Assembly: GCA_020632415.1 (NCBI GenBank)
Contig: JACKFO010000002.1
Location: forward strand, 578,732 to 642,731
From: Candidatus Nomurabacteria bacterium
GTDB taxonomy: Bacteria; Patescibacteriota; Patescibacteriia; UBA1558; GWA2-36-10
Direction of reading: 5' to 3'
DNA length: 64,000 nt
The translations under genes were made by a program, and so were the position numbers. Below are positions 13,376 to 50,547 of the stretch, piece by piece. Below the pieces are notes generated by a model. That model was not told where the DNA came from. It searched no databases and worked only from the letters and a program-made list of their open reading frames with translations. Numbering within the stretch: position 1 is the stretch's first letter; each line of letters opens with the position of its first letter.

Positions 13376-13396
13376 GTCGTCTTCCTTTCAATTCGG

Positions 13397-14995
13397 TTAC
13401 TTAAGCAGAGTCAACTTTTGTGCAAGGAAGCAGTTCTTGGATCGCAGTGCTACTATGTACACACCACTAGCTTCCTCAGCAAAATCAAACACCTGTCGAT
13501 GCTCGCCTGCTGAGAAAAATTGCGGTGATTGTGATTTCACTTGCCGTCCCAACAAGTCGTACACGCTGAATGTCAGCCACTGTGCCTCAGGCACCATGAA
13601 GCTGATATTGGTCTGCACGTTGAACGGATTGGGATAGCAATCCAAACTGAACTCTTGCGGCCTAGCGATCGGCTGCTCAACGGATACTTGATCCAAGAGC
13701 AAACCCCAAGCAGTAGTGACCCACTGATTGTTGAGATAATCACAAGTTGCTCCGCAATAAGTTCCAGAATTTGTAACAATCGCCTTAGTCTGAGAATAGG
13801 GTCTAGCTGCGTCATTGGCTGCCATGTAGCCCGGCAGAGAGAACTGATGACTCTCCACGAATGAAAAGCCGTCGAATTCAAACCACAGAGCTTTTTGAGT
13901 AGCCAAGCTCGACTGATACCACAGTAAGTGGTTGTCGAGCAGGTCAACAGCCATGACCAAATCGTCGATCACCAAAGAATCCAAGATCTGACCAGTTTCA
14001 GTCAGAGCAAAAAGCAAACCATGACTAGGCGTAGCACCGGAAGTAGTAGCGACCAACAAGACATCGTCCTGCCAAACCGGTACACCATACCAATGAACAC
14101 CATGATACAAAGTATCTGCAACTACTTGCTGACCATCATAGAGATCGGTCACTGTCAGCTGCAGATAATCATTCCAGTATGGATCCGAGCCCACGATACC
14201 GACGGAGTAAAGATTCCCTCCTCTAATGCTCAAACGCGAGCGGGCTTGAGGAAAATCATTTGCCGTCGTCCAGACAAACTCTCCATCGGCTGACAAGAAA
14301 GCTGTATGCTCCGAGTTCTGCAGAACAAAACCATCGGCATAAGCAATCATTGCCAGCTCTGAACTGTAGCTGTCCCCAAGATAAGTCACGGGATCATCCC
14401 GCAACAAAATGCCTGTGTTTAGATCAAGCACCTGTACGTAGTAGCTCGGTGCTTGCTGTCCACTGTGACCATCAGAAATTCCTTTGACGATCAGAAGTCG
14501 ATCGCCGTTGATCAGGGGCTGGAAACCAGCGCCCAAAGAAATTTCCAGACTGTCCAAAGGACCATCGCTCAGCGACCAATCCTCCACGAACTGCCCAGTC
14601 TGATAGTCAGGATGCAAACGATGATAGTGCATGGTGGTCGTGTTTACCTCAGTAAGAGTAAACTCGGTCTCCACCAGAACAAAACCATTGTTCTGATCAG
14701 TTACTACTTCGCCACCCGTTGCCGGATGATTGAGCAGCAACTGATCGCTGATCAGAATCGTACCTTGCGGACTGTGCACGCTGGCGTAAGCGTCACCGTA
14801 GTAAGGCGGCGCATATCCGGCATACCACAAATCCAAAATATTGTTGTCAGCCAAATTCTCAGCAAACAACGACGTTGCCGTCGGTGTCTGCGGATTGACT
14901 CGCTCCACCCAAAAGTAAGTGGAGTCGATGCCGTCTTCTTGAGCATAAACCGTGTTGCAGAACAACACGATCAAGCCCCAAAGCAGAGTCTTCAT
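13397..14995 (-). CDS. Secreted protein with a type IX secretion system (Por) C-terminal sorting domain; foreign GC-rich origin
   Basis: Signal peptide MKTLLWGLIVLFCNTVYA. The C-terminal ~80 aa (CYPNPFNVQTNISF…LTFSVYDLLGRQVK…ASGVYIVALRS…KLTLLK) match the T9SS CTD consensus. SD AAGAGGTGTGAG. GC ~53%. Confidence 0.75.
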   Translation of the reverse strand: MKTLLWGLIVLFCNTVYAQEDGIDSTYFWVERVNPQTPTATSLFAENLADNNILDLWYAGYAPPYYGDAYASVHSPQGTILISDQLLLNHPATGGEVVTDQNNGFVLVETEFTLTEVNTTTMHYHRLHPDYQTGQFVEDWSLSDGPLDSLEISLGAGFQPLINGDRLLIVKGISDGHSGQQAPSYYVQVLDLNTGILLRDDPVTYLGDSYSSELAMIAYADGFVLQNSEHTAFLSADGEFVWTTANDFPQARSRLSIRGGNLYSVGIVGSDPYWNDYLQLTVTDLYDGQQVVADTLYHGVHWYGVPVWQDDVLLVATTSGATPSHGLLFALTETGQILDSLVIDDLVMAVDLLDNHLLWYQSSLATQKALWFEFDGFSFVESHQFSLPGYMAANDAARPYSQTKAIVTNSGTYCGATCDYLNNQWVTTAWGLLLDQVSVEQPIARPQEFSLDCYPNPFNVQTNISFMVPEAQWLTFSVYDLLGRQVKSQSPQFFSAGEHRQVFDFAEEASGVYIVALRSKNCFLAQKLTLLK

Positions 14996-15178
14996 CTCAC
15001 ACCTCTTATTTTCATTGTTTTTCGTTGAAATCGATATGTAAACCAATTGGTTGATTAACCAAATGGTTATTTTGTAAAAGGACAGATCTAACTAGATACC
15101 ATAGTAAAAATAGCACATTTTGTCAATAAACAAAAAACGCCCTTCTCAAATCCGAGAAAGACGTCTCAAAAATCAATG

Positions 15179-31940: not shown

Positions 31941-32015
31941 GCCCCGATAGTTCAACGGATAGAACAGTAGCCTTCTAAGCTATAGATCTAGGTTCGATTC
32001 CTAGTCGGGGTACCA
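31941..32015 (+). tRNA. tRNA-Arg (anticodon TCT), CCA encoded
   Basis: Hand-folded cloverleaf: acceptor GCCCCGA/TCGGGGT, anticodon loop CTTCTAA, T-arm GGTTCGATTCC. Confidence 0.8.
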
Positions 32016-32043
32016 TCACATATTACATATTTATTTTAAACAA

Positions 32044-32119
32044 GCCCTTATAGCTCAGTTGGTAGAGCAGTTGCCTCTTAAGCAAACGGTCCCAGGTTCG
32101 AGTCCTGGTGGGGGCACCA
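32044..32119 (+). tRNA. tRNA-Lys (anticodon CTT), CCA encoded
   Basis: Acceptor GCCCTTA/TGGGGGC with two G-U pairs, D-arm TAGCTCAGTTGGTAGAGC, anticodon loop CTCTTAA, T-arm GGTTCGAGTCC. Confidence 0.8.
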
Positions 32120-32134
32120 CTAATTTATAAACAT

Positions 32135-32210
32135 GGTGGCTATGGTGTAACGGTTAACACAGCGGTTTGTGGTACCGCTAATGAGGGTTCGATTCCCTCT
32201 AGCCACCCCA
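32135..32210 (+). tRNA. tRNA-His (anticodon GTG) with encoded G-1 and CCA
   Basis: Extra 5' G pairs with discriminator C73. Anticodon loop TTGTGGT. T-arm GGTTCGATTCC. Confidence 0.8.
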
Positions 32211-32241: not shown

Positions 32242-32360
32242 ATTTAATCCCAAATGGGGATAGAAATAATTTAAATTTTTAACAAAAGAAAAACCGGATG
32301 ACAGGGACAAGACTTAACTTGTTTATCATCCGGCAGTGAATCTTTAGGCCTTGAGCTTGT

Positions 32361-34358
32361 TTAGCTCTTGATCTCCTCCAAGAATCGATCAACACCAATA
32401 CGTTGACGCAGACGCTTCATACCACCATCGCCAATACCCGGCGACAGTCGATGTTTGCTGTCCAATTGGAAACAAAGTGCGTTGAGTTGATCACGCGCAA
32501 ATTCCGCCAGAGACATGATCTGCGTACTGAAGATAACGCTGACGCCAGATCTGGCTAGAGTGTTGAGTAGATCGCGACCTAGCTCGAAACCAGCCATCTC
32601 CTGTGTGCCGGTGCCAACTTCATCCAAAACTAGGACGACACGCTTACCATCAATTCCCTGTATCCCCCGTAGGATGTTACGGATCTTGCCCAACAGGATT
32701 TCACAGGTGGATCCTTCACCTCGTTGAGCGATGAAGACCATGCCCAGCACCTTCTTGACGTTGAAACGGAAAAACTGCCCAAAGACCGGCAATCCACTCT
32801 GAGCCAAAAAGATGTTGACGACAATGCCAATCTGCGTCTCACTCTTGCCGCCACCATGTTCGCCGGTCAAGGCAATCATGCGACCATTCAATTCCGGCAA
32901 AGAGTGTACCGGTACTACTTGACCCTTCTTCAGATGACAGAGCAACTGAGTCGGGTAAAGTTGACCAAACTCAACGACATGACCGTCCGTGACGATCTCG
33001 GGCTGACAGATTGGTACGCCGAATTTCAAAGCGGTGTCTTGAATGGATCGCAGGACCGAGATGACAACCTGCAGTTGATTCCAGTACTCAGCGAAAAAAT
33101 TTCGCTGATCTTGCAATGCCTCGTAAAGATCGTGAAATTCCTTGCCACGGTATTCATTGAGGATGGCAAACCAACGGAATTCACGATCCATGTTTAGAGA
33201 GGTGCTAAAGAAAGGCGTGAGAAATGAATGGTTCTGCCTCACAGCCGCAGCAATCAGTGCGTTATTGGCCTGAGCATGAGCTGCCTCGTCCCTTTTTCTC
33301 TGAATCAAGACTTCAGCTTTCATGATCTGTTGGTACTTCAAAGCATCGTAACCAGCAAAACCATCGGACAAGTTAACAGTCTTTCTGTCTTCAGGTTCGG
33401 GAATCTCCAGATGCAAAATCGTAATTTGCAGACCACTCTGATCATAGGAGAATTGTACCGTCGCCTGGCCACCATTAAGACTGGAATTGTCCCAGTGGAT
33501 TTTACGCAGCTTTCCGAGGACTGCTGATCGAATATCTTCGATCATGGAAGTTGAAATGCTATTGATGACCATAGCTTTGTAAGCTGGGCGGCAGCGGAGA
33601 AGATTTTTGAAATCAACCAACTTGCGCCGCAAAAAGCCAAAACCCAGCCAGTTGAAAGGATTCAGTGCATCGTGCGTCCACTTTGGATAAGCGAGTTTGG
33701 TGCTTATCTTCTGGGAATACTTGCGATGACCAAAGACCTCTCCACCTGAATACTCCAAATCAGAAACAAGGAAAAGGGACTGATCAGGATCAACGCCCAT
33801 CTTTTCCTTGACCGATTTCTCGACACCTACTGTTACCACTTCAAAGCTCATCCAGCCGTGCATGACCGTAATCTGTTCCACTCGTTGAGTGATGATGTCG
33901 GCCATTTTACGTTCGGCAGCTTCCAAATCGAGACCAACCAACAACTTATTGGCAATCATTTGCAGATCAGGAGGAGCATCCGGAGAATTCAGAATGAATT
34001 CTATCCACCCATGGACCATTGCCCAGTAGGGATTGTGTTCATTCTGGGGGTTGTAAAACTTAAGGAACTCTTCTTCATCAATCGGAAGACCGGCCGTTAC
34101 GCCAGATTCTTCAACCCAACTCGTAAAAGCAGGGTGACCTGTTAAGAAACGACAAAGATTGTGTCGACGATGTAACTCTTCCTCATTTGTGATTCCGAAG
34201 CTGGAAGCCAAAGACGAATCCTTGATACCAAGAGCTTTAAGAAATTCATCAACTGGCAGGTCCTCTTCGTTGATAACCTGCAAACGATCACGCTTGTGAA
34301 TCTTGGTCTTCCACAGCGGTTGAGCTGATGGATCCGGATACTTGATTGTGGTGGCCAT
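32361..34358 (-). CDS. MutS-domain-V (ABC-type ATPase) protein fused to a ~430 aa N-terminal domain of unknown function; GC-rich orphan
   Basis: The C-terminal ~220 aa carry a Walker A (TGEHGGGKSE), a Walker B (VVLVLDEVGTGTQEMAG) and a STQ motif in the ATH position, plus MutS-like C-terminal RLSPGIGDGGMKRLRQRIG. GC ~48%. A long GC-rich terminator hairpin (CCGGATGACAGGG…TCATCCGG plus T-run) sits at 32294-32332 on the minus strand. Confidence 0.65.
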   Translation of the reverse strand: MATTIKYPDPSAQPLWKTKIHKRDRLQVINEEDLPVDEFLKALGIKDSSLASSFGITNEEELHRRHNLCRFLTGHPAFTSWVEESGVTAGLPIDEEEFLKFYNPQNEHNPYWAMVHGWIEFILNSPDAPPDLQMIANKLLVGLDLEAAERKMADIITQRVEQITVMHGWMSFEVVTVGVEKSVKEKMGVDPDQSLFLVSDLEYSGGEVFGHRKYSQKISTKLAYPKWTHDALNPFNWLGFGFLRRKLVDFKNLLRCRPAYKAMVINSISTSMIEDIRSAVLGKLRKIHWDNSSLNGGQATVQFSYDQSGLQITILHLEIPEPEDRKTVNLSDGFAGYDALKYQQIMKAEVLIQRKRDEAAHAQANNALIAAAVRQNHSFLTPFFSTSLNMDREFRWFAILNEYRGKEFHDLYEALQDQRNFFAEYWNQLQVVISVLRSIQDTALKFGVPICQPEIVTDGHVVEFGQLYPTQLLCHLKKGQVVPVHSLPELNGRMIALTGEHGGGKSETQIGIVVNIFLAQSGLPVFGQFFRFNVKKVLGMVFIAQRGEGSTCEILLGKIRNILRGIQGIDGKRVVLVLDEVGTGTQEMAGFELGRDLLNTLARSGVSVIFSTQIMSLAEFARDQLNALCFQLDSKHRLSPGIGDGGMKRLRQRIGVDRFLEEIKS

Positions 34359-34538
34359 TCTCTGTTCCTCCGACTCTGTTTTTGAGGTTGTTGTTTCTCT
34401 ATAGACAATCTTTCAAAGTGCAAATTAGCGAGTTTATCGCAATGCCTTACTATATGATATTTTACTTATTTTGTCAACCTTATTTCTAACCACCTAAAAA
34501 CAACAAATGCCCCTCTTGAGAGATTACTAGAACTCCAT

Positions 34539-34649
34539 CAATTCTGATGAGTAAAAATAGTCTAAATTGTTATAGATAATTTTTCCGATTGACTTCACTG
34601 TTTTACCCCATCAGCAAACTACTCCCTAAAAGAGTAGTTTTTTGATATA
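34539..34649 (+). repeat. Repeated intergenic module copy 1: X (48 bp, promoter-like), an 18-bp spacer, then Y (45 bp with an AAACTACTC/GAGTAGTTT hairpin and T6)
   Basis: X = CAATTCTGATGAGTAAAAATAGTCTAAATTGTTATAGATAATTTTTCC, recurring at 38757-38804 with 44/48 identity. Y = ACCCCATCAGCAAACTACTCCCTAAAAGAGTAGTTTTTTGATATA, identical at 37489-37533. Confidence 0.7.
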
Positions 34650-34674
34650 CTAAAAACGTTATTAAATTTAAAAT

Positions 34675-35721
34675 ATGAAATTGTTTAAAAATCTGCAAAA
34701 TTTTAGCGACATGGTAATGTTTACCATCATTGGAGGGATAATCGGCTCTATATTGATTTTAGGAGGTTTTATTTGGTTAAAAATGAGCAGTCAACACAAC
34801 GATACATATTCGAGCAATGTGCCTCAAGTAATATCGAAATCAGAACATTTGAAATTAGTTAGTGATTATTGTTATTATGGAGATTGTTTGTTTCAGAACG
34901 AAGAAGAAAACAATAACTATGTTTTTGGTCTTACTACTTTGAAAGGTTGGCATTTTACTCGTGATAGCATAGGCATGGGTGGGGACAATGTGACTTGTGA
35001 TGCTTTTGTGATTGAAGAAGGCCCAAGGCCACTTGTAAATTTTTATAGAGACATAATAGAGAGTGGAAATAATTTTTATAATATTGATGAAAATGGTTAT
35101 TTTACTATAAATATAAATTTAAATAATTTATCAGATGACGAGAGAGCGCTTATTCTTAATTCTGATTCGTATCATCCTATTGAAATGATGATTTTTCAAA
35201 ATCCACCCCTTGGCAAAGGAGAAGCGGCCTGTATGAGCACTGTTCGTATATTAGAAATTGAAAAAGCAACGCCCACTTGGCAAACCTATAGAGATGCAAA
35301 AAATACATATGAGTTTGAATATCCATCGGAGTGGAGAGTGACGGAATATGCTAGTGAAAATATTTCTATAAGTATGGACGTTGTTGGAGATACGGTATTA
35401 TTCATGAAGGGCGTCTCTATTTTTCCATTAAGCCAAAACAGTGTAAATGTTTTGCTCGATGAATGGCAAGTAAAAAAACAGGATTCAAATCAAGGCATGG
35501 TAATTTTTGATTATTTGGAAAATGAAAATATATCAGGTCAAGAGGTTTTGGTTCGTAAATTTAGAAATCAGGACAATCAACACGGAGGAACTGACTATCT
35601 TTTTCCATTTAAAAAATTATTATTGGAAATTCCAGATTTGATAGAAAAAGATGGCGCATCTGAAGAATATACCAACACAGTACACGATAGATTTTGGAAA
35701 ACTTTCAAATTTCTAGATTAA
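34675..35721 (+). CDS. Membrane-anchored hypothetical protein, paralog 1 (MKLFKNL N-terminus, one TM, extracytoplasmic domain)
   Basis: Shares a 27-bp 5' leader and an MKLFKNL-plus-TM start with the next gene. Confidence 0.55.
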   Translation: MKLFKNLQNFSDMVMFTIIGGIIGSILILGGFIWLKMSSQHNDTYSSNVPQVISKSEHLKLVSDYCYYGDCLFQNEEENNNYVFGLTTLKGWHFTRDSIGMGGDNVTCDAFVIEEGPRPLVNFYRDIIESGNNFYNIDENGYFTININLNNLSDDERALILNSDSYHPIEMMIFQNPPLGKGEAACMSTVRILEIEKATPTWQTYRDAKNTYEFEYPSEWRVTEYASENISISMDVVGDTVLFMKGVSIFPLSQNSVNVLLDEWQVKKQDSNQGMVIFDYLENENISGQEVLVRKFRNQDNQHGGTDYLFPFKKLLLEIPDLIEKDGASEEYTNTVHDRFWKTFKFLD

Positions 35722-35765
35722 CTACTAATTTTTTTCTGTACTAAAAACGTTATTAAATCTAAAAT

Positions 35766-36956
35766 ATGAAACTTTTTAAGAATTTAAAAAGACACGAGTG
35801 GATCATAGCAATGGCTATTGTTTTTGGAATTATTGGGGTCATTGCTATAACGGGATTTTTTGTTAAGCGGGAATTTAATAAGCAAAAAAATGTTGTCGAT
35901 GTTCAAAGTGATGATGGTTGGCTGACTTATACAAATGAGAAAACACCTGTCTTGATATATATACAAGAAATAGTTAAAACAGGGAGTGACTCTAGAGCAT
36001 GGCCGACTGTGCAAATAATAGGTAAAGTTGGAGATAGCGATCCTGAGCTTCTTGCTGAAGTTGGCAAGGAGGACGAATATCCTGTTGGTTATAAATTGAG
36101 TCCTGATAACAAATCTCTTTTAATTAACCTAGAAAGTAAGCTCCAAATTTTAAATCTAGTCACCAAAGAACTAAAGGATTTGTTTGTACCTAAGCAACAA
36201 GTTGCCAGCATTTCTTATTCGCCTGATGGAAAACAATTATTTATTTGGGATCAAAAATATGGCCAACAAAACGGTGAATATTACGCTCACATTTTTGATA
36301 TTATCACACATAAAGATCAGATATTAAAACAAGGAAATATTGAGGGTTCATTTTTTAGTGTAGCCTGGCGTGATGATGGTAACGTCACGATGTATAAAGC
36401 TATGGGCGATTTTGCTCGGTCATATTATTTTAATTTAGCTACCAATGAATTACGAGAAACCCCAAATTCTTACACAACCGGCGTTGTAAGCACTAGTGGT
36501 AAATTGATGTCCACGATAAAAAAACACATACCTGATATCTGCAATGACATGAGCGGAAGCGCGCCTAGTTTATATAATATCATTGATCCAGTTTCAGGCA
36601 ATGTTCTAGGGATGGTTGGCAAAGCTAATTACAGCGTAGATATAATCGCTTTTTCTTCTGATGATAAAGAAGTTTTTTATAGAGCTGGAAAACCATGGAC
36701 CAATAGAGAGGATTGTGATAAAAATATAGAAAATAAATATTTTACGACCTTAATTAACACAGGAGAATCGAATGTAGTCATCAATCCTTCAGAGATTATT
36801 AGTTCTTGGGCTGGTAATTATATTGGAGCGTCATCTAAGTATAATTACAAAGAAAACACTTGGTCTATTTTAATTAACGATGAACCATTAATTACATCTG
36901 ACAAGAGATTGCAAATTGCGGGGCAATTCTATCTACAAAATACAGAAGAAAATTAG
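35766..36956 (+). CDS. Membrane-anchored hypothetical protein, paralog 2, with a TolB/PD40-like beta-propeller-type extracytoplasmic domain
   Basis: MKLFKNL plus TM. Repeats such as SPDNKSLLINLES and SPDGKQLFIWDQK are reminiscent of PD40 blades. Confidence 0.55.
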   Translation: MKLFKNLKRHEWIIAMAIVFGIIGVIAITGFFVKREFNKQKNVVDVQSDDGWLTYTNEKTPVLIYIQEIVKTGSDSRAWPTVQIIGKVGDSDPELLAEVGKEDEYPVGYKLSPDNKSLLINLESKLQILNLVTKELKDLFVPKQQVASISYSPDGKQLFIWDQKYGQQNGEYYAHIFDIITHKDQILKQGNIEGSFFSVAWRDDGNVTMYKAMGDFARSYYFNLATNELRETPNSYTTGVVSTSGKLMSTIKKHIPDICNDMSGSAPSLYNIIDPVSGNVLGMVGKANYSVDIIAFSSDDKEVFYRAGKPWTNREDCDKNIENKYFTTLINTGESNVVINPSEIISSWAGNYIGASSKYNYKENTWSILINDEPLITSDKRLQIAGQFYLQNTEEN

Positions 36957-37958: not shown

Positions 37959-38737
37959 TGTTTGAAGCATTTTTTATTAGCGCAATAACAATTTTTATTT
38001 ACGCCTCTCTTTGGTTCATTATTTCTTTGATCATAAAAAGAAATGACATTGCTGATATTGCTTGGGGTTTAGGATATATTTTGTTAGTTTTATTTTTTCT
38101 CTTTCAACAAAATAATACCTACGAAGACTACTTGCTTTATATCTTGATTATTTTATGGGGATTAAGATTATCCATTCATATATTTATCAGGAATCAAGGT
38201 AAAACGGAAGATTATAGATATAATCAGTGGCGTAAAGAGTGGGGAAAATATTTTTATATTCGCTCATATCTACAAATTTATTTACTACAAGGATTTTTAT
38301 TAATTTTGATAGCCTCGCCAATAATCTTAACTTCGGTTAATACAAATAATCATTTAAATTTTTTGAGTTTTTTAGGCCTCATCATTTGGTTTATTGGTTT
38401 TTATTTTAAAAGCGTCGGAGATTACCAATTAGCAAAATTTTTAAAAAACCCAGAGAACAAAGGAAAAATTTTAAAAACCGGTTTATGGCAATACACTAGA
38501 CATCCAAATTATTTTGGAGAAGTGACAATGTGGTGGGGCATATTTTTAATAGTTGTAAATTTAAATAATTTTGTTTATGCCTTAATGAGCCCATTGACTA
38601 TTACAATTTTGATTTTATTCATTTCGGGGGTGCCATTGTTAGAGAAAAAATATCAAGGAGATCCAGAATTTGAAAAATACAAAAAAGAAACTAATAAATT
38701 TTTTCCATCTTTTAGAAAAAATAAAATATCCTCTTAA
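37958..38737 (+). CDS. DUF1295/ICMT-like membrane methyltransferase-fold protein (steroid 5-alpha-reductase-like family)
   Basis: WQYTRHPNYFGEVTMWWGIF carries the RHPNYxGE signature of DUF1295 and isoprenylcysteine carboxyl methyltransferase-like proteins. Confidence 0.65.
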   Translation: MFEAFFISAITIFIYASLWFIISLIIKRNDIADIAWGLGYILLVLFFLFQQNNTYEDYLLYILIILWGLRLSIHIFIRNQGKTEDYRYNQWRKEWGKYFYIRSYLQIYLLQGFLLILIASPIILTSVNTNNHLNFLSFLGLIIWFIGFYFKSVGDYQLAKFLKNPENKGKILKTGLWQYTRHPNYFGEVTMWWGIFLIVVNLNNFVYALMSPLTITILILFISGVPLLEKKYQGDPEFEKYKKETNKFFPSFRKNKISS

Positions 38738-38756
38738 AACTTTACTATAGCTTTAA

Positions 38757-38856
38757 CAATTCTGATTAATAAAAATAGTCTAAATTGTTATAGATAATTT
38801 TTCCCTGCCTACCGGCAGACAGGAGATTGACCTCGCTGTTTTGCCTCATCAAACAA
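38757..38856 (+). repeat. Repeated module copy 3: X, a 19-bp hairpin insert CTGCCTACCGGCAGACAGG, then a diverged Y
   Basis: X is 44/48 identical to copy 1 (all differences fall in TGAG versus TAAT). The Y region has diverged (ATTGACCTCGCTGTTTTGCCTCATCAAACAA). Confidence 0.6.
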
Positions 38857-41669: not shown

Positions 41670-44585
41670 CTACCAATCCTTCAACTTAAAGCTTAAGTTA
41701 TCTAGGATTCTAGTATACCAGTATCTGACTGGGATGGTAATAATATCTTGCCATTTAAAGCCTAGAGATAAGAAAGTGTTTTGGTCTTTGATCCAGTATT
41801 CTATACCGTCTTGAACATAGAAGACTTGAGGATAAGAACCATGTTTTAATAATTGTCCACTAGGATGAATGTCTGAGCTAGTAATGTTTTCTCCTATTGT
41901 GTAGTAACTAAAGTCTTCTGCTGGTAAGTTAACTATTTTATTGAAGTCATAACCAAAGTCAGAGAAGATATTAGCACTTGTAATCCATCTTAGGGTTTTA
42001 TTAGGCTCTACAGCATAGACTTTGTTAGAATCTTGGAATTTAACTAGATTACCTGGTTTAACAGTAAGTCTTCCAAGGTAAGGATAGCTATTATTTAAAG
42101 TAACTTGGTCTAAGGTTTGAAGAGAGTTGAAGTTATTAAACCAAGTGTAGAAAGTAGCTAGGTTAGGGATATAGTATCTTTTACTTTCTTGGTTAATGTA
42201 ATAGACTCTAGGATCTTGGGAAGCTTTGGCTAGAAATCCTTGAGGATAAAGGATGTTAAGAGAGTTTGGAGTTGTAGTGGCTGGAGTATCTTCTTCTATT
42301 TGGCAGAGGTAGGAACAACCATCACCATTGTTAAGGTTTCCATCGTCACACGTTTCTCCTGTTTCTATGATGGAGTTACCACATACTATTGGAGGGTTCT
42401 CTGGTGGTGGAGGTGGGTTTATCTCTTCATTACCTCCTCCATTGTCACAAGCAGAGCAAGAGCCTCCACAGTCTATTCCTGTTTCATTGCCATTTTGGAT
42501 ATTGTCTGTACATGAAGCTGGTGGTGGGGTTTCTTGTTCTATTTGGCAACTTGAGGAACAACCATCGCCATTGTTAAGGTTTCCATCATCACAGGTTTCT
42601 CCACTTTCTAGGATGGAGTTGGAACATTGAGGGACGATCATGGCAATATTGTAAACGCCCATATCAGGCTGCGCTCCTGAAAAATAATTTGTTGCAAAAC
42701 CAGGCAAAGGATCATAAGCTTGGTCGTCAATATTAAAACTCTGAGAAATATCAATACCAGACTCTCTAGCTAGGCTGTCTTCAGGCAAAAGAAAATTCGG
42801 AATAATTGAAGCATCCCACATGTATGATCCATCTTCCAAAAAATTATGCTCCCCAAACCAAGGAGGCAAAGGGTCATAATAATAATGCTCTCCACCATCC
42901 CAATTATAATCAAAGCCACCAAATAAATTTGTTTGTTGAATTAATTCCCTATTTAAATAAACTGTTCTAAAAGCAGAAAAAATATTGTTTACAAATAAGA
43001 CATTAGGATACCCCTCTTGCTCAATATTACTTAGACCAGAAAACATTTTATAAGCACCAGTAAAACTATTGTGATAAATATAAAAATGTGGGTGTGTCGT
43101 TCCTGCTGGCCAATCATCTAGATTAATCCTATGAGCAAAAATATGAGAACTTACTCCTTGAGGATTATAAAATTTATTTCTATAAATATAAGCACTTCTT
43201 TCATTGTCGCCGACTTCATCGGTATGATGCAATCTTAAATTAATATTAGCGTCTTTTAAGAAATTATCATGAATTTCTGTATTTTTACAATAAGAAATTT
43301 GTAGAATATTTATACTAGAACCACCCTCGATGTCATTAGTATAAATTTTGATTCCATCCATAGTATGTGTTGCATCACCCCAGATAGAAATGCCAATCAA
43401 ATTATTTCTTAACTGATTACTATATACTTCATTATAATCCCCTGCTGACTGCATAGCTATGCCATAATCAAAAGTACCGCCTGGACCAAACCAATATTTA
43501 TACATAATATAAAAAGCCTCTTTGACTAGAAAATCATACCTCTGCTCTTCGTTCCAGCCATCACTATGACGATCATCCCAAGCACCTGGCTGATAATTAG
43601 ATAAAAATTTTGGATTTAAATAATTGTCGTAAATATAATTATAAGAAGTTTGATGTCCAGTAAGATAAATTCTTCTAGACCCACCATAAATAGAATTATT
43701 TCTAATATGATTAAATTGCGCACCATTATTCAGGCTCACTCCATTTTCTCCGCCATAAATTTTAAAACCCTGAATAACGACATTGTATGCTCCATTGATA
43801 TTAATCGTTGAATCACCTTGATAATTAAATTTTAAATTCTCATTGTTTGGGTTTCTATTATCCCTAAAATGAAGATATAAATAATCTCCCTCATTACCAA
43901 ACAAAGCTTCCGTTGGATCCCAATAATCAATTAAATCATCGGGGTCAGCATGATAATGCAAATGTGTCTGTTGACCATCTTGGTAAGCTATCATTTCAAA
44001 ACCAGTATGTTCAGATAAATCATCTGCTTGAGCATTAACCAGATGAGAATCATCCATTATTGAACTTAAATCCTGATAAAAACCGGGAATTTTTTTATAG
44101 CTTGCTCCCTCTCCAATTGACATCACTCTCACTGGAACATCATTCTCTTTCATAATTTTCCAAACACCTATCCCGACTTCTGGTGCTTGCACCCAAGCAT
44201 GTTCTGAAAATCTTCCGCCATCAATAATTACTTCACCATCTGATTGAAAAATAATTGGCTCTTCTACTGTTCCCGACATAGTTATCTCAATCCTCTCATT
44301 ATATGTTCCTTGATGAACAATAACCGTGTCTCCAGCCGTAACGGTATCAGCAGCTTTTTGAATACTTCTCCATGGATTATCAGATGTCCCTAATCCTGAC
44401 ACATCACTACCAGAAACAGAAACATGGTAAGTATTAGCACTATCCGCCTTAGCAAAAAATGATGTATCTGAATTTTTAATGGAATAGCTAAACCAAATAT
44501 TAAACAAAGACAAAACAAAGATCGCCAGAACACTGACAATCATCCTATTTTTTAAAGTATCTTCAATTAGCTTAAAATGTTTCAT
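41670..44585 (-). CDS. Giant surface protein (971 aa): right-handed parallel beta-helix repeats, two Cys-rich CxxxxGExCDDGNxxxGDGC repeats, and a shared ~250 aa C-terminal domain
   Basis: N-terminal TM/signal anchor. PbH1-like repeats (NNSIYGG, HDNFL, NNIF). Myxococcus-type cysteine-rich repeats. A poly-Pro linker. The C-terminal 330 aa are near-identical to those of the next gene. Confidence 0.8.
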   Translation of the reverse strand: MKHFKLIEDTLKNRMIVSVLAIFVLSLFNIWFSYSIKNSDTSFFAKADSANTYHVSVSGSDVSGLGTSDNPWRSIQKAADTVTAGDTVIVHQGTYNERIEITMSGTVEEPIIFQSDGEVIIDGGRFSEHAWVQAPEVGIGVWKIMKENDVPVRVMSIGEGASYKKIPGFYQDLSSIMDDSHLVNAQADDLSEHTGFEMIAYQDGQQTHLHYHADPDDLIDYWDPTEALFGNEGDYLYLHFRDNRNPNNENLKFNYQGDSTININGAYNVVIQGFKIYGGENGVSLNNGAQFNHIRNNSIYGGSRRIYLTGHQTSYNYIYDNYLNPKFLSNYQPGAWDDRHSDGWNEEQRYDFLVKEAFYIMYKYWFGPGGTFDYGIAMQSAGDYNEVYSNQLRNNLIGISIWGDATHTMDGIKIYTNDIEGGSSINILQISYCKNTEIHDNFLKDANINLRLHHTDEVGDNERSAYIYRNKFYNPQGVSSHIFAHRINLDDWPAGTTHPHFYIYHNSFTGAYKMFSGLSNIEQEGYPNVLFVNNIFSAFRTVYLNRELIQQTNLFGGFDYNWDGGEHYYYDPLPPWFGEHNFLEDGSYMWDASIIPNFLLPEDSLARESGIDISQSFNIDDQAYDPLPGFATNYFSGAQPDMGVYNIAMIVPQCSNSILESGETCDDGNLNNGDGCSSSCQIEQETPPPASCTDNIQNGNETGIDCGGSCSACDNGGGNEEINPPPPPENPPIVCGNSIIETGETCDDGNLNNGDGCSYLCQIEEDTPATTTPNSLNILYPQGFLAKASQDPRVYYINQESKRYYIPNLATFYTWFNNFNSLQTLDQVTLNNSYPYLGRLTVKPGNLVKFQDSNKVYAVEPNKTLRWITSANIFSDFGYDFNKIVNLPAEDFSYYTIGENITSSDIHPSGQLLKHGSYPQVFYVQDGIEYWIKDQNTFLSLGFKWQDIITIPVRYWYTRILDNLSFKLKDW

Positions 44586-44675
44586 TTTACTTCTTTATTT
44601 TAACATTTTATAACATTTTAAAAAAGAGTCCCGTCTGACGGAGACTCTTTTTATTTTCTTTAAACTAAAATGTTT

Positions 44676-47600
44676 CTACCAATCCTTCAACTTAAAGCTT
44701 AAGTTATCTAGGATTCTAGTATACCAGTATCTGACTGGGATGGTAATAATATCTTGCCATTTAAAGCCTAGAGATAAAAAAGTGTTTTGGTCTTTGATCC
44801 AGTATTCTATACCGTCTTGAACATAGAAGACTTGAGGGTAAGAACCATGCTTTAATAATTGTCCACTAGGGTGAATATCTGAAGTAGTAATGTTTTCTCC
44901 TATTGTGTAGTAACTAAAGTCTTCTTGAGGAAGATGGATGATTTTATTAAAGTCATAACCAAAGTCAGAGAAGATATTGCCACTTGTAATCCATCTTAGG
45001 GTTTTTTCTGGTTCTATTGCATAGACTTTGTTAGAGTCTTGGAATTTAACTAGATTACCTGGTTTAACAGTAAGTCTTCCTTCGTATGGATAGCTATTAT
45101 TTAAAGTAACTTGGTCAATGACTTGAAGAGAGTTAAAGTTGTTAAACCAAGTGTAGAAAGTAGTAAGGTTAGGGATGTAATATCTTTTACTTTCTTGGTT
45201 AATGTAATATACCCTAGGGTCGTTAGGCGCTTTGGCTAGAAAGCCTTGAGCTTTTAAAACATTAATTGAGTTAGTGGTTGATGTCGCTTGATTGTCTTCT
45301 TCTATTTGACAGAGGTAGGAACATCCATCTCCATTGTTAAGGTTTCCATCGTCACACGTTTCTCCACTCTCTTGGATAGAGTTGCCACAAGCTATTGGAG
45401 GGTTCTCTGGTGGAGGTGGTGGTTGGTTTCCTCCTCCGTTGTCACAAGCAGGGCAAGAACCTCCACAGTCTATTCCTGTTTCATTACCATTTTGGATATT
45501 GTCTGTACATGAAGCTGGTGGTGGGGTTTCTTGTTCTATCTGGCAAGTTGAGGAACAACCATCACCATTGTTAAGGTTTCCATCGTCACAGGTTTCTCCA
45601 CTTTCTAGGATGGAGTTGGAACAAGTTGGGCCTGAGGCATATTCTAAAAGTCCAATGTCTGGAGCAAAGCCTTGGAAGTTGTTGGTGTTTACTCCACTGA
45701 TTAACATTCCTTGATCAATGGCTGGAGAATTAGATTGAAGAGTAAAGTTTTCTTGAGAGAAATTAGTAAACAATGGGTTAGTTTGGAGAGAAAGTGATTC
45801 TTGAGAAGAATGTGTTTTATAATCTGCAAAAACATATTCTGCGGTACTAGAATCCCCCAAATCCTGATAAACAAATTTTACCTCACTAGCATTTGGCGCA
45901 TAATACAAATTATTGTTGTAAGTATTAAGAGAATGATCAACATCGTAAGCTAAGCTTGCTGGAATTACTTTGTAAGGACTTGTCGAATAAAAAATATTAT
46001 TAGCAATCGTGTTGTCACGAACGTTATCGCCATCCGGAGCATCCATGTCGGCATAGACTTTAAGACCGTATTTAAAATCTCCGACAAAAATGTTATGAGC
46101 AATCGTGTTATTAATGCTGTAGGCCCAAGTCAAATCTGGATCAGTACCATCTGAATTTTCTAAAATAACCGCTGGGTAAGTAGAATTATCTTTTTCAGTT
46201 AAAATATCCAGAAATTTATTATAAATAGCAACGTTATTTTGACCAGCGTCAATATGCAAGCCAATTCCATATGGTGTATAAAATGTATTATTTTGCACCA
46301 AACTATCATCAGTGTCCGAAAGCCAAATTCCCGTTACCCAGCCTGGCGCAAAATAAGCTGGGTCTTCAACGATGTTATTATGAATATTAATTCGAGCTAC
46401 ACGATAATCAGCGGTGCCCTCTAGCAACATTCCATTTCCTCCTGCTCTAACAATGTGATTATTATAAACTTCAATATCTGAAGCATTGTGAATTGATAAT
46501 GAGGAGGCTAAATTAAACAAACCATTACCCTCGTGATAATTATCATGAATTGAAAGATCTTTGGTGTAGTAAGTCAAAGTGCCGCAGCTACCATTATTAA
46601 TAAATTGATTATTATAAATCTCCGAATTTACTGAATGATATTGACTACCATTAACACCAAAATTTGGACCATAATAATACAAACCAATTCCCCCGTTATT
46701 CTCTGCCAAAGAATTTTTAAAAATAATATTTTCATTATAATGTTCCGTGGTATAGTTTGGATTATAATAGGCATAAAAATAAGCTCCCGTCGAACCATTG
46801 TTATAAATATGTAAATCATCAAAAACTAGATCATGATTTCCTTCAATATCACGACTAGTTGTTTTTGTATAGACATATAACCCAATACTACCAGCGTAAC
46901 GAATATCAAAATTTCTAAATTCGATGTGATAAGATTCGTATTCTCCATTGGTTCCAAAATAAACAGCCGTTGAACGAGATGGTATTTCTACAATATGTGC
47001 CGAAGGATGACCTCCTGAAATGGTTCTAACATAGACATAGTCCGGATCCTCTGATTGTTCGCCCAATTGATACAAATATTCTCCCGCTGAATCTAAAAGA
47101 TTAAGATTATCAATCAAATGATAGGGACTCGTATCAGTCGGATCTCCATATTTAAAACTTTCATCCGGATTAGTCAATAAAAAATCATTTTCATTAGGAT
47201 CAGTAGAAAAAGTAGCAGTGCTAGTTTCTCGATCATAAGCAACGATCTTAGCTTTTTTATGCCAAAGATACTCGGTCATTATTTCTGCCCAAGAACCAAT
47301 GATTTTTTCATCAGGCAAAACATTCAGATCTGAATCGATCAAATATTCCCTAGTAAACATTGAGCTCTCTAATCTGTCTAAGTTATCTTCTGGATAACGA
47401 GCTGAATACAAAACCTGACCATCTTCAAAAACACCGCGATAGGCATCCTCGCTGTTGACCAAAGTTGTTCGATAAAGGCCATTGCCCATGTCTTCCCAAG
47501 CAGTTTTTAAAACTCCAGCCGAAAAGATAACCTCTTCATCTTGATACCCTTCGATCTTATTAGGTCTGCCAGCAACCCCATTTGGCCAATAATAAGAAGT

Positions 47601-47921
47601 CAAATAATCACGATAAATGCCCTCCCGAAAATAAATGGTATTACCACCGGTTTGAATTTCTCCGCTAGATTGCTTGGTTTGTATCGCCTTTAATCCGACA
47701 GTCGATCTCGACCAAGCAGAATAGCCAGTGTTGATTTGAGTACAACTACGAGTACTTGGGCTATAATTATCTTGCAAACAATCCTCAGTTAAATTTTGAT
47801 CAATAAAAAAAGTTTTACTGACCAGCGCTGCTTTCAATAAAACCAGAGAACTAACAGCCGCACCAAAAAATAGGGCGACTACCGATAATAATATAATTTT
47901 TCTGAGATTAAGCCTCTTCAT
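44676..47921 (-). CDS. Giant surface protein (1081 aa), a paralog of the previous gene with a divergent beta-helix N-terminal part and a near-identical C-terminal module
   Basis: Signal anchor and many beta-helix repeats (NNQFINNG, HDNYHEGNG, NNHIV…). The same CDDGN repeats and C-terminal domain ending ILDNLSFKLKDW. Confidence 0.8.
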   Translation of the reverse strand: MKRLNLRKIILLSVVALFFGAAVSSLVLLKAALVSKTFFIDQNLTEDCLQDNYSPSTRSCTQINTGYSAWSRSTVGLKAIQTKQSSGEIQTGGNTIYFREGIYRDYLTSYYWPNGVAGRPNKIEGYQDEEVIFSAGVLKTAWEDMGNGLYRTTLVNSEDAYRGVFEDGQVLYSARYPEDNLDRLESSMFTREYLIDSDLNVLPDEKIIGSWAEIMTEYLWHKKAKIVAYDRETSTATFSTDPNENDFLLTNPDESFKYGDPTDTSPYHLIDNLNLLDSAGEYLYQLGEQSEDPDYVYVRTISGGHPSAHIVEIPSRSTAVYFGTNGEYESYHIEFRNFDIRYAGSIGLYVYTKTTSRDIEGNHDLVFDDLHIYNNGSTGAYFYAYYNPNYTTEHYNENIIFKNSLAENNGGIGLYYYGPNFGVNGSQYHSVNSEIYNNQFINNGSCGTLTYYTKDLSIHDNYHEGNGLFNLASSLSIHNASDIEVYNNHIVRAGGNGMLLEGTADYRVARINIHNNIVEDPAYFAPGWVTGIWLSDTDDSLVQNNTFYTPYGIGLHIDAGQNNVAIYNKFLDILTEKDNSTYPAVILENSDGTDPDLTWAYSINNTIAHNIFVGDFKYGLKVYADMDAPDGDNVRDNTIANNIFYSTSPYKVIPASLAYDVDHSLNTYNNNLYYAPNASEVKFVYQDLGDSSTAEYVFADYKTHSSQESLSLQTNPLFTNFSQENFTLQSNSPAIDQGMLISGVNTNNFQGFAPDIGLLEYASGPTCSNSILESGETCDDGNLNNGDGCSSTCQIEQETPPPASCTDNIQNGNETGIDCGGSCPACDNGGGNQPPPPPENPPIACGNSIQESGETCDDGNLNNGDGCSYLCQIEEDNQATSTTNSINVLKAQGFLAKAPNDPRVYYINQESKRYYIPNLTTFYTWFNNFNSLQVIDQVTLNNSYPYEGRLTVKPGNLVKFQDSNKVYAIEPEKTLRWITSGNIFSDFGYDFNKIIHLPQEDFSYYTIGENITTSDIHPSGQLLKHGSYPQVFYVQDGIEYWIKDQNTFLSLGFKWQDIITIPVRYWYTRILDNLSFKLKDW

Positions 47922-47940
47922 TAATTTAACTGGGAAATTA

Positions 47941-50547
47941 TTATTCTCCTGCTCGATGACGTTTAATAAAAAAAATCAGTCCTGAACTCACAAGAACCGC
48001 CAAGAAGGCTCCTAGGATATAATAAAATAAATTACCATTGCCCTGATCAGTTTTTGGCAAAAGCTGTTTTAAATAATTATTAGAATCCGTCTTCATAGAC
48101 TCCTTAACTAATAAAGAGCGTGGATTTGACTGTTTCAAAATTTTACCATCTTGATCATTGACGGCCAAATAGATTTCATGCTCCCCTTCAGCTAAAGCTG
48201 AATTCAAAGAATAGGACCAAGCTCCAGACTGATCGCTCTTGGTGCTCAAAACCAAAGGTAAATCACTATAAATATAAATAGTTAGCCAAACATCAGGGTC
48301 AACTGTTCCGGATAACTCTAGACTTTGATCATCTTTAAACTCTGTTTTTATTTGCCAAGCACTTTCAATTGCTGCTCTTTTAATTTTTGCTTGTTCCAAA
48401 GAAGCCCCGGCTAAAACGAGTTCCGCGAAATTGCTAAATTTCTCTTCTAATTGACCACTGCCATTAGGATTGTAAGAATTTTTTATTTCTACCAAATCTG
48501 AATAACCATCAGCGTCAGAATCCTGATTTAATGGATCAGTAGCAAAATATTTTTCCAAGTCATCAGGCAAACCGTCCTGATCAGAATCAAGCATCAGCAC
48601 TGCTGCTGGCACATCCTCCAAAACGCTCTCTTTACTTAAAACCGTAGCTTTCTGAGAATTAAAAACCAAAACTGACTGTTCTTTAGCTAAAACTGGATCT
48701 AAAGATAAATTTTTAGCACCAAATAAAGCCTCATTTAATTCCCCTATCTTTGTTGTTTTTCCTAAAAATGGGACTAAATCTTGATTTAATTTTTCTTGTT
48801 CTAGTTTTCTAACCACCAAACGATTCAAGTATTCTTCGGCCAAAATTTTCTGACATGAATTTGTATCACCAGAAGCACAAGTAACATCTGAAGCATAAGT
48901 TTCTAAAAGATAATTATGGCAAGCTTGCCGATCAAAGAGTTGCTGTTCTTGGCATTTCAAATCAACGACCGTCCGATTTAAATAATCTTCACAGGAATTA
49001 ACCTCATCTATTCCTTCATCTAAACAAATTTGGTCAAGATCAGCTCCTCCTAAATTTTCTTCTTTTTTAATTTGCTCAAGGCCCTCTTCTTGTTTCTGAC
49101 ATTTACCGACAACGCAAGAGCAGCTTCCTCTCGGAATTGCCGCACAGTCAACTACTGGTAGTTCACTTTGAGCATAGCAACCGCTACACAAATTTACACA
49201 ATCAGCATCTACTTGGCAGAGAGCAGGCTTTTCTTCCTGATCGTCTTTTTCGTCAACTACAGCAGCTTGACTTTGCTCTGATTCATTGTCCTGATCATCT
49301 TCGCTTTCAATAGCTGGTGAGGCCAGAGACAAATTTTCTTCAGACTGTAAAGCTAAATTTAAAACAAAATCTTCTTCATAAACTACTCCGCTAGAATCAG
49401 TAGCAATCGCCGCCAAAATATAAACCCCATCAATAAAATCTTGATCCAAAACAACGCTCTTGTTCCAATGAAGGCCATCAAATTTACTAATCGAATATTC
49501 ATCACCGATCGAAGCATCATCTTCTTTAACTAACAAAAAACCAAAATCATTAGCAATAAAATTACTTCTAAACTCAAAACTTAATTCCGGATGACTTACA
49601 AAACTATTATCCTGAGGACTAAGTAAGCTGATCTGATAATTTTCTGGGTTGCTTTCTAAATTTAAAATTTCCTCTTCACTCAAATGTTGATTTTCGTCTA
49701 TCTTGTTTTCTGTAATTTCAAAAATTAGCGGTTGATTTAAATAATTTAAATTTTGATTTAACCAAACAACCAGATAGTATTCTCCAAGTGGATAGTTTTT
49801 TATCTCGCCAAAATTAGCGCCATACAAAACTGGATCATTATTAATCATTGTTAACTCAAAATTTGTAAACAAATCTCCCTCAATGTTATACAAACTTGCT
49901 CCCAAAATTTCATCTGCATTTAAAGCTCGATTTAAGCTTAATTCTATGGGAAAATTATCTTGATTAATATTTTCTTGAACGCTTGGAGAGCTTAAGTTGA
50001 TTAATAATTCTGTTGCTAAGTCAGCAAGCTTATTCGAATCGTCTGACTCCTCTGTTTTTGTTTCTTCTGAGATATTTTGATCAGTCGTAGCATCTTTTGA
50101 CTCAGCGGCAATAACGATTTCACCAGATAAGCTTATCTTCACTTCTGGCGAAACTTTAAATATTACTAAATTTCCTGCTGAGTCATAGCTACTGGCTTGG
50201 GCTGACAAAAAATAATCGCCAGCCAGAAAAGAGCTGGTATCCCAAAAGCTATCAGCAGACCAAAAACCATCCTCGTCTAAAAAAGCTTGCCATTGCAACT
50301 CAAAAGATTTATTCTGATCTTTGACTACAAAATTAAAAGTATCAAAATCTTCTACGTCAAAATTTCTTCCCTGCAATTTTACTAATTCTCCGACTTGAAA
50401 ATGATCAGCGCTTAAAACAAATTGAAAATTCAACTGTTGAGTATTGTCATAAGCAGCCCGAGTAGTCACAAAAACAATACCTTGAGTAAAAACTAGTAAA
50501 AAAATAAATATTTTAAATAAAAAGTGATTGATTTTTTCCGTAATCAT
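47941..50547 (-). CDS. Large surface protein (868 aa) with an N-terminal signal, thrombospondin-type-3-like DxDxDG calcium-binding motifs, a Cys-rich segment and a C-terminal TM anchor
   Basis: DSDQDGLPDD…DSDADGYSD; CQVDADCVNLCSGC…; C-terminal LFYYILGAFLAVLVSSGLIFFIKRHR. Confidence 0.7.
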   Translation of the reverse strand: MITEKINHFLFKIFIFLLVFTQGIVFVTTRAAYDNTQQLNFQFVLSADHFQVGELVKLQGRNFDVEDFDTFNFVVKDQNKSFELQWQAFLDEDGFWSADSFWDTSSFLAGDYFLSAQASSYDSAGNLVIFKVSPEVKISLSGEIVIAAESKDATTDQNISEETKTEESDDSNKLADLATELLINLSSPSVQENINQDNFPIELSLNRALNADEILGASLYNIEGDLFTNFELTMINNDPVLYGANFGEIKNYPLGEYYLVVWLNQNLNYLNQPLIFEITENKIDENQHLSEEEILNLESNPENYQISLLSPQDNSFVSHPELSFEFRSNFIANDFGFLLVKEDDASIGDEYSISKFDGLHWNKSVVLDQDFIDGVYILAAIATDSSGVVYEEDFVLNLALQSEENLSLASPAIESEDDQDNESEQSQAAVVDEKDDQEEKPALCQVDADCVNLCSGCYAQSELPVVDCAAIPRGSCSCVVGKCQKQEEGLEQIKKEENLGGADLDQICLDEGIDEVNSCEDYLNRTVVDLKCQEQQLFDRQACHNYLLETYASDVTCASGDTNSCQKILAEEYLNRLVVRKLEQEKLNQDLVPFLGKTTKIGELNEALFGAKNLSLDPVLAKEQSVLVFNSQKATVLSKESVLEDVPAAVLMLDSDQDGLPDDLEKYFATDPLNQDSDADGYSDLVEIKNSYNPNGSGQLEEKFSNFAELVLAGASLEQAKIKRAAIESAWQIKTEFKDDQSLELSGTVDPDVWLTIYIYSDLPLVLSTKSDQSGAWSYSLNSALAEGEHEIYLAVNDQDGKILKQSNPRSLLVKESMKTDSNNYLKQLLPKTDQGNGNLFYYILGAFLAVLVSSGLIFFIKRHRAGE

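Follow-up and report, generated by a model that had tools for sequence, protein, structure and literature searches.

A candidate MutS subfamily of Patescibacteria that pairs a MutS-type ATPase with a distinct N-terminal domain

What does a MutS-type ATPase do when it stands at the end of a protein whose large N-terminal part resembles no named domain? This question is raised by one gene in a 64,000-nucleotide stretch of the Candidatus Nomurabacteria bacterium assembly GCA_020632415.1 (contig JACKFO010000002.1, positions 578,732 to 642,731 of the forward strand; hereafter, the window). The product of this gene, referred to below as the MutS-like protein, is identical to the NCBI entry 'hypothetical protein H6761_03125 [Candidatus Nomurabacteria bacterium]', which lies on an 842-kb contig. 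An initial annotation, made from the letters of the window, described an orphan MutS-type ATPase fused to an uncharacterized region and suggested nucleic acid surveillance or defense as its function. The host is a tiny-celled member of the candidate phyla radiation (CPR), a vast section of the bacterial tree with very few cultivated representatives and poorly known machinery for DNA repair and quality control. The analysis presented here points to a protein family with its own N-terminal domain and, on balance, to an ATP-switched clamp that would act outside canonical mismatch repair.

MutS-type ATPase, lever-like arms and N-terminal domain

The family came to light when 1.84 billion representatives were searched exhaustively with phmmer: 399 of them matched at E ≤ 1e-3, and 192 at E ≤ 1e-30. 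Most of these relatives are 640 to 700 amino acids (aa) long and align from about residue 5 to about residue 660. A word-indexed protein search returned the query and one homolog only (63% identical, from Parcubacteria GW2011_GWA2_36_10), whether it was run with the single sequence, with a 68-sequence profile or with an N-terminal profile. In the 68-sequence family alignment, 13 columns were invariant, comprising G499, G504, K505, S550, D579, E580 and G641 in the ATPase and M1, E61, R65, P92, G168 and G210 in the N-terminal region. Sampled family clusters hold one to five metagenome sequences each, and the sole name given to them is 'hypothetical protein'; neither Pfam nor NCBIfam contains a model specific to the family.

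The reading frame and every ATPase motif quoted in the initial annotation (Walker A, Walker B, STQ and the C-terminal helix) were present (Table 1). The sequences GEHGGGKS and VLVLDE follow the Walker A (GxxxxGK[ST]) and Walker B (hhhhDE) patterns, with K505, D579 and E580 unvaried across the 68 members. Downstream of Walker A, LAQSG at residues 518 to 522 corresponds to the 'AQxG' motif of MutS, with A519 conserved in 94%, Q520 in 86%, S521 in 92% and G522 in 98% of members. In the catalytic loop, FSTQ replaces FATH, and Q613 is found in 98% of the family. Alignment to Escherichia coli MutS by hhalign paired Walker A, the signature, Walker B and FSTQ/FATH, residue for residue; as with MutS1 and MSH proteins in general, the similarity was limited to domain V.

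When the family profile was compared with known structures, MutS2 was matched at E values of 1.9e-15 to 1.5e-13, and MutS and MSH proteins at about 1e-8. The top NCBIfam match of the window protein was likewise mutS2 (TIGR01069), at 23 bits against a cut-off of 400 bits, with MutS reaching 11.8 bits against 480. A search with the Pfam MutS_V profile, which had been proposed as a check, gave a divided answer: the window protein alone scored 18.8 bits, below the 30.2-bit gathering cut-off, whereas 64 of the 68 family members matched at E < 0.01 (best, 2.3e-11). Since the window sequence alone is subthreshold on MutS_V, the ATPase assignment is secure only when the family is considered. With the family included, these comparisons support the assignment of the C-terminal ~220 residues to the MutS-type ATP-binding cassette (ABC) ATPases, nearest to MutS2.

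An AlphaFold2 (AF2) model of the MutS-like protein was obtained with a mean predicted local distance difference test (pLDDT) score of 92.6 and a predicted template modeling (pTM) score of 0.79. In this model, residues 1 to 338 form a helical bundle (residues 59 to 162 and 240 to 285) and two long β-hairpins (residues 164 to 212 and 298 to 318). Within this region, W16, N30, E149 and Y305 are conserved in at least 92% of members. Pfam left the N-terminal two-thirds unmatched in all 68 family members, and for residues 1 to 338 both a PDB sequence search and a fold search that included BFVD structures returned no relative. These data suggest that residues 1 to 338 are a conserved, well-folded domain without a known relative. 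The initial annotation had placed the boundary of the unmatched region at ~430 residues; a novel region does exist, but its truly unmatched part covers about residues 1 to 338.

The remaining residues ahead of the ATPase are modeled as a pair of lever- or clamp-like arms (Table 1). In fold comparisons, the model resembled MSH2 (score 29.2 over 404 residues), Msh3 (27.2 over 323), Thermotoga maritima MutS2 (26.5 over 401 of 484), Bacillus subtilis MutS2 on a collided disome (25.1 over 348) and Taq MutS (23.1 over 360), which clearly exceeds its similarity to generic ABC ATPases (about 12 over about 157). Because the ATPase covers only ~220 residues, the arms would have to superpose too, in the manner of MutS levers, and some core helices of the model probably superpose on MutS as well. 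The Msh3 match of the family profile starts at profile position 325, which is consistent with superposing arms; the exact residue correspondence between arms and MutS levers is inferred. Thus, the earlier statement that only the ABC ATPase module of MutS is present holds for the sequence, but not for the fold. MutS domain I, which reads mismatches, and the connector domain II were detected neither by sequence nor by fold, as the initial annotation had proposed, and Pfam found no Smr, KOW, mismatch-binding or nuclease domain in the window protein or the 68 members.

The protein was next set beside known relatives of MutS. Like the family protein, MutS2 (RqcU; Smr endonuclease and ribosome-splitting ATPase) lacks MutS domains I and II and has a MutS-type ABC ATPase; its lever-like arms would have their counterpart in the modeled arms of the family protein. 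The KOW domain of MutS2 lies between its ATPase and Smr domains (PMC10897456), whereas the family protein ends after the ATPase, without C-terminal coiled-coil, KOW or Smr. The family protein also differs from MutS2 by ~338 additional N-terminal residues and by glutamine in place of the catalytic-loop histidine. MutS1 carries domain I, with its Phe-X-Glu mismatch reader, and domain II; in MSH4/5 the mismatch-binding domain is missing, as it is in the family protein.

A likeness in layout is offered by the orphan paralogs MutS3, MutS4A/B and MutS5 described by Lin, Nei and Ma in 2007 (PMC2190696). By description, these proteins carry a C-terminal MutSac ATPase after a poorly characterized N-terminal region, and they share with the present family a patchy distribution, suspected horizontal transfer and an undefined function (PMC2190696). 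MutS4 is encoded as an A/B gene pair, and no such pairing occurs at family loci. One orphan paralog, a 'MutS family' protein of a Clostridium estertheticum plasmid (627 aa), has only the ATPase in common with the family (hhalign E = 9e-11, residues 440 to 646) and retains STH where the family has STQ. Weak ATPase similarity was also seen to KamC, the reactivase ATPase of lysine 5,6-aminomutase (NCBIfam NF052383; E = 2.6e-4, residues 448 to 612), at 19.9 bits against a 300-bit cut-off for the window protein, with no aminomutase genes among the neighbors; KamC illustrates that a MutS-like ATPase can carry a name for a role other than DNA repair. Collectively, these comparisons, made for MutS3 to MutS5 by description and through the one C. 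estertheticum sequence, suggest that the protein represents a MutS subfamily of its own, set apart by a novel N-terminal domain. The initial view of an orphan MutS paralog, distinct from mismatch repair MutS, is therefore upheld by the lack of domains I and II, KOW and Smr. Within MutS, the family would form a CPR-restricted branch that combines a new N-terminal domain with a changed catalytic loop. With a confident structural model and ~190 diverse sequences it is ready for biochemistry, and its definition would annotate some genes that are now called hypothetical.

Distribution, expression unit and base composition

Scans of DNA located 17 family loci in species-representative genomes, with the 12 closest sequences as the query alignment, and 25 in metagenomes. 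Genome records with family loci were mostly titled Parcubacteria, Saccharibacteria, Falkowbacteria, Uhrbacteria or 'Patescibacteria group'. Six bins with a family member (loci L010, L011, L016, L017, L019 and L021 in our numbering), mostly third-party (TPA) assemblies, were labeled Gammaproteobacteria, 'archaeon' or 'Methanosarcinales archaeon'; these labels could not be confirmed, and either the contigs are misbinned CPR sequences or the family genuinely occurs outside CPR. The copy at L017 is longer, at 833 aa by our own open reading frame (ORF) call, and a scan of longer family members (700 to 807 aa) found no fused domains. No relatives were present among viral contigs, a phage collection and BFVD structures, and a plasmid collection gave two partial matches that cover the ATPase only. 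By these sequence searches, the family appears to be nearly confined to Patescibacteria/CPR.

In the window, the gene is flanked by a sigma-70-type promoter, which would give a leader of ~85 nucleotides (nt), by a Shine-Dalgarno sequence and by an intrinsic terminator (Table 1). The terminator hairpin folds with a ΔG of -24.9 kcal/mol and a z score of -4.0, computed for an 88-nt stretch. Promoter-like and Shine-Dalgarno-like sequences comparable to those of the window gene precede its homologs, whose upstream spacers are roughly 170 to 430 nt long, most of them 200 to 300 nt. Nothing else was common to the upstream leaders of the 14 homologs that were compared. Across 44 loci, the one recurrent protein cluster was the MutS-like family itself, and in no locus did a second MutS-like gene adjoin the family gene. 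Pfam annotation of 87 and 78 neighbor proteins yielded mostly housekeeping functions, including SSB, primase, DnaB, SecA and H+-PPase as well as the translation-related proteins considered below. Given the promoter, the terminator, the upstream spacers of homologs and the lack of a conserved neighbor in the 44 loci, the gene is predicted to be a monocistronic, autonomous expression unit without a conserved partner.

Two families of intergenic repeats lie near the gene. A 92-nt repeat is present in two copies that are 80% identical, and contigs of public short-read assemblies break exactly there. In an 85-nt unit, present three times, a terminator-like hairpin (CAAACTACTCCCTAAAAGAGTAGTTTTTTG) is combined with an A+T-rich spacer and the start of a gene. 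Both repeat families contribute to the composite region immediately upstream of the MutS-like gene.

The gene has a G+C content (GC) of 0.477, compared with 0.367 for the rest of the window, in agreement with its initial description as GC-rich. GC at the first, second and third codon positions (GC1, GC2 and GC3) is 0.56, 0.36 and 0.51 in the gene and 0.41, 0.31 and 0.29 in the host, and amino acid usage is shifted as well, with FYMINK residues at 0.26 versus 0.35 and GARP residues at 0.23 versus 0.18. At both the start and the stop codon the excess breaks off abruptly, and the GC of promoter, leader and terminator, at 0.27 to 0.34, is like that of the host. Over 32 loci (the window and L005 to L043), the difference in GC3 between gene and host averaged +0.09, exceeded +0.10 in 13 loci and was never below -0.05 (minimum, -0.03). 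In a neighbor-joining tree, the clade of the query (the window, L005/23/24, L006 and L025) has a GC3 of 0.51 to 0.55 in hosts of 0.29 to 0.37, while its members are only 45 to 64% identical to the query. The sister gene at L022 has a GC3 of 0.77 in a GC-richer host at 0.64. The GC3 of other family members matches that of the host, in GC-rich and AT-rich hosts alike.

Close relatives of the gene were found in differing genomic contexts. Together with the shifts in codon-position GC and amino acid usage and with the 13 of 32 loci above +0.10, this argues for horizontal transfer, and the simplest reading would be repeated transfer among CPR lineages from moderate-GC donors. We therefore propose that the gene is an accessory one, passed between CPR lineages. 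Transfer among CPR leaves the one-sided nature of the GC excess, and its persistence across a deep clade, unexplained.

Proposed mechanism and alternatives

MutS family members have roles beyond mismatch repair, as meiotic junction clamps, in anti-recombination and, in the case of MutS2, in ribosome rescue. Against this background, we consider it somewhat probable that the protein is an ATP-switched, MutS-like clamp with a novel recognition domain, acting outside canonical mismatch repair. By analogy with MutS2 and MSH4/5, it would form a head-to-head homodimer held together by the ATPase heads and C-terminal helices, and ATP binding would act as a switch that opens or closes the lever arms around a nucleic acid or ribonucleoprotein substrate. 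Hydrolysis is slowed in degenerate ABC sites, and the near-universal change from His to Gln in the catalytic loop suggests slow hydrolysis and a long-lived ATP-bound 'switch' state. Residues 1 to 338 would serve to recognize a target or recruit a partner, in place of MutS domains I and II or of MutS2's KOW and Smr domains. Since no nuclease domain is present, the protein would act by signaling, clamping or remodeling and not by cutting.

Several points weigh against the clamp mechanism. Dimerization, ATPase activity and substrate are all carried over from knowledge of MutS, MSH4/5 and MutS2, and the effect of the His-to-Gln change on hydrolysis from other ABC ATPases. Further, although net charge averages +3.5 in arm 1 and +2.5 in residues 240 to 290, the helical bundle of the N-terminal region is acidic (-10 in the window protein); the protein does not appear to be notably basic, and its charge lends no positive, or only weak, support for nucleic acid binding. 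As framed, the mechanism accommodates both a role in DNA transactions (recombination or control of foreign DNA) and a ribosome-related role.

A more specific form of the clamp mechanism, which we regard as speculative and rather improbable, is a CPR-specific, horizontally mobile single-gene system in which a MutS2-like ATP-gated clamp and a new-fold sensor or effector act alone on foreign or branched nucleic acids. If this were true, the protein might, for example, police the DNA that these naturally competent, nucleotide-scavenging cells take up, and the one-sided GC excess would reflect continual reacquisition or an unusual force on the gene's own sequence.

Among the alternatives, the one that fares best, while still unlikely, is a single-gene system for antiphage defense or foreign-DNA surveillance, in which the clamp would detect invading nucleic acid, with the N-terminal domain serving as effector or signal. 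The sporadic distribution and very small clusters of the family, its foreign composition, the different contexts of close relatives and the autonomous expression unit are all in keeping with such a system, and ABC-type ATPases are common in defense systems. Defense-like neighbors were found at a few loci, since PADLOC applied to the 87 genome-locus neighbors returned one isolated match each to MzaA, RT_UG29 and mad2. However, no defense-island pattern emerged, as neighbors are overwhelmingly housekeeping genes and none is conserved across the 44 loci; the neighborhood survey thus did not bear out the defense-island context that had been anticipated. A weak match to Mad8 of MADS (PADLOC PDLC04140), around Walker B and the D-loop, was obtained for 25 of the 68 members, with a best E value of 3e-8, but it spans only ~47 residues of a 314-position model, and the match of the protein itself is accordingly not taken as a sign of defense. 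MADS is an eight-gene operon, whereas the family gene stands alone. Neither a nuclease nor any other recognizable effector domain is present, phage and viral collections lack relatives, and the plasmid matches are confined to the ATPase.

Somewhat less probable, in our assessment, is a ribosome-associated factor like MutS2/RqcU, that is, a dimeric ATPase that splits or remodels stalled ribosomes and whose N-terminal domain binds the ribosome instead of KOW and Smr. The ATPase is nearer to MutS2 than to MutS1, and ribosome splitting by MutS2 requires its ATPase, not its nuclease (PMC10897456). However, the family lacks KOW and Smr, the domains through which MutS2 is brought to collided ribosomes (PMC10897456). 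Translation-related genes do recur in the surroundings. In five genome loci, GTPases that associate with the ribosome are encoded no more than 5 kb from the family gene (TypA/BipA in three, plus LepA, Der and YsxC; Table 1), and in two of the five one of them directly adjoins it. RRF and the hibernation factor HPF were found twice each, Pth, AlaRS and ribosomal protein S11 were also seen, trigger factor and NusA occur at L005, and tRNA clusters are nearby at some loci. Since small CPR genomes are rich in such genes, their presence is weak evidence, and none is conserved. TypA/BipA seemed to be a recurrent partner in the first 17 loci, but TypA/BipA, LepA, Der and YsxC are all absent from the 25 metagenome loci, and this candidate was downgraded to weak. 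The patchy, horizontally transferred distribution would also be unusual for a core translation factor.

That the gene was carried in by a mobile genomic island with tRNA-His as its integration site, as its position had suggested at first, is very improbable. The adjacency itself is real: the stop codon of this GC-rich gene, unlike its host in composition, lies 150 nt from the tRNA-His 3' end. An Rfam scan of the window found three tRNAs and nothing else. However, no integrase or recombinase occurs among the neighbor genes in the window, and the 25-nt tRNA-His 3' end is present there as a single copy, even with three mismatches allowed, which does not support tRNA-His as an integration site. 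The GC-rich stretch coincides exactly with the coding sequence, within host-like signals. Elsewhere the tRNAs differ or are missing: 5 of ~38 loci have one no more than 700 nt away, a different one each time and on either side, which is near chance, as 6 to 8% of genes would be expected that close by a rough estimate. In public short-read (Logan) assemblies, the gene was found on isolated 2.5-kb contigs; this is not taken as a hint of mobility, as these contigs end in tRNA-Lys and in the local 92-nt repeat, where assemblers ordinarily break.

An ordinary or degenerate MutS2 or MutS mismatch repair protein can be set aside as the least credible explanation: MutS2 and MutS are the best named matches, but scores lie far below both NCBIfam cut-offs, the full-length match to a canonical MutS2 or other paralog named earlier as a refutation was not found, domains I and II, KOW and Smr are absent, the protein stops with its ATPase and is followed by a terminator, and its full-length conservation within the family is not that of a decayed copy.

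Coordinates and other features of the window

Table 1. Positions of the MutS-like gene, its predicted signals and domains, and other features (window coordinates unless a locus is named)
Feature	Position	Strand	Description
Sigma-70-type promoter of the MutS-like gene	34449..34477	minus	TTGACA-17 nt-TATAGT; 11 of 12 consensus matches
Shine-Dalgarno sequence of the MutS-like gene	34366-34371	minus	GGAGGA, spaced 7 nt from ATG
MutS-like protein, complete coding sequence	32361..34358	minus	Uninterrupted ORF, 665 aa plus stop codon
N-terminal family-specific region, aa 1-338	33345..34358	minus	Family alignment and AF2 model
Lever/clamp-like arms	33021..33344	minus	Two antiparallel ~37-residue helices (aa 339-375, 409-446) and a 33-residue tip (aa 376-408); lead into the ATPase
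MutS domain V-type ABC ATPase, aa 447-665	32361..33020	minus	Pfam, NCBIfam, profile and hhalign
Walker A, aa 499-506	32841..32864	minus	GEHGGGKS; aligns with E. coli MutS GPNMGGKS
MutS-type signature, aa 549-553	32700..32714	minus	GSTCE; aligns with E. coli MutS GRSTFMVE; S550 invariant
Walker B/D-loop, aa 574-585	32604..32639	minus	VVLVLDEVGTGT; aligns with E. coli MutS LMDEIGRGT; D579 and E580 invariant
STQ, aa 611-613	32520..32528	minus	Position of the MutS T-H catalytic-loop motif (E. coli FATH, H728)
C-terminal helices, aa 647-664	within ATPase part	minus	Two short, conserved helices; AF2 model
Intrinsic terminator of the MutS-like gene	32283..32334	minus	Hairpin, then UUUUUCUUUUG (U-run), 3' of the stop codon
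tRNA-Arg, tRNA-Lys, tRNA-His cluster	31941-32210	plus	MutS-like gene converges on the cluster
Ribosome-associated GTPase genes at other loci	L012 12035-13816; L021 8133-8699 and 9019-10815; L006 16072-17889; L014 2978-4804; L007 6920-8311		
92-nt intergenic repeat	34495-34586; 38713-38804		
85-nt intergenic unit	34615-34699; 35706-35790; 37499-37583		
Gene pair starting MKLFKNL	34675-35721; 35766-36956	plus	
GC-rich block	9887-15046	minus	Two large ORFs
Three consecutive large ORFs	41670-50547	minus	971, 1081 and 868 aa

Other parts of the window also have unusual features. The adjacent genes that share the start MKLFKNL have no Pfam match and a predicted N-terminal hydrophobic stretch; from their sequences, they look like tandem paralogs with a common repeated upstream element. 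The GC-rich block has a GC of 0.50 to 0.54 compared with ~0.33. Of its two ORFs, that of 1162 aa has no Pfam match and that of 549 aa carries a C-terminal Por_Secre_tail domain (type IX secretion sorting), which is unexpected in a CPR genome; the block is possibly another horizontally acquired segment. The products of the three consecutive large ORFs contain DUF4215, right-handed β-helix and bacterial Ig-like domains and are probably surface or adhesin-type proteins.

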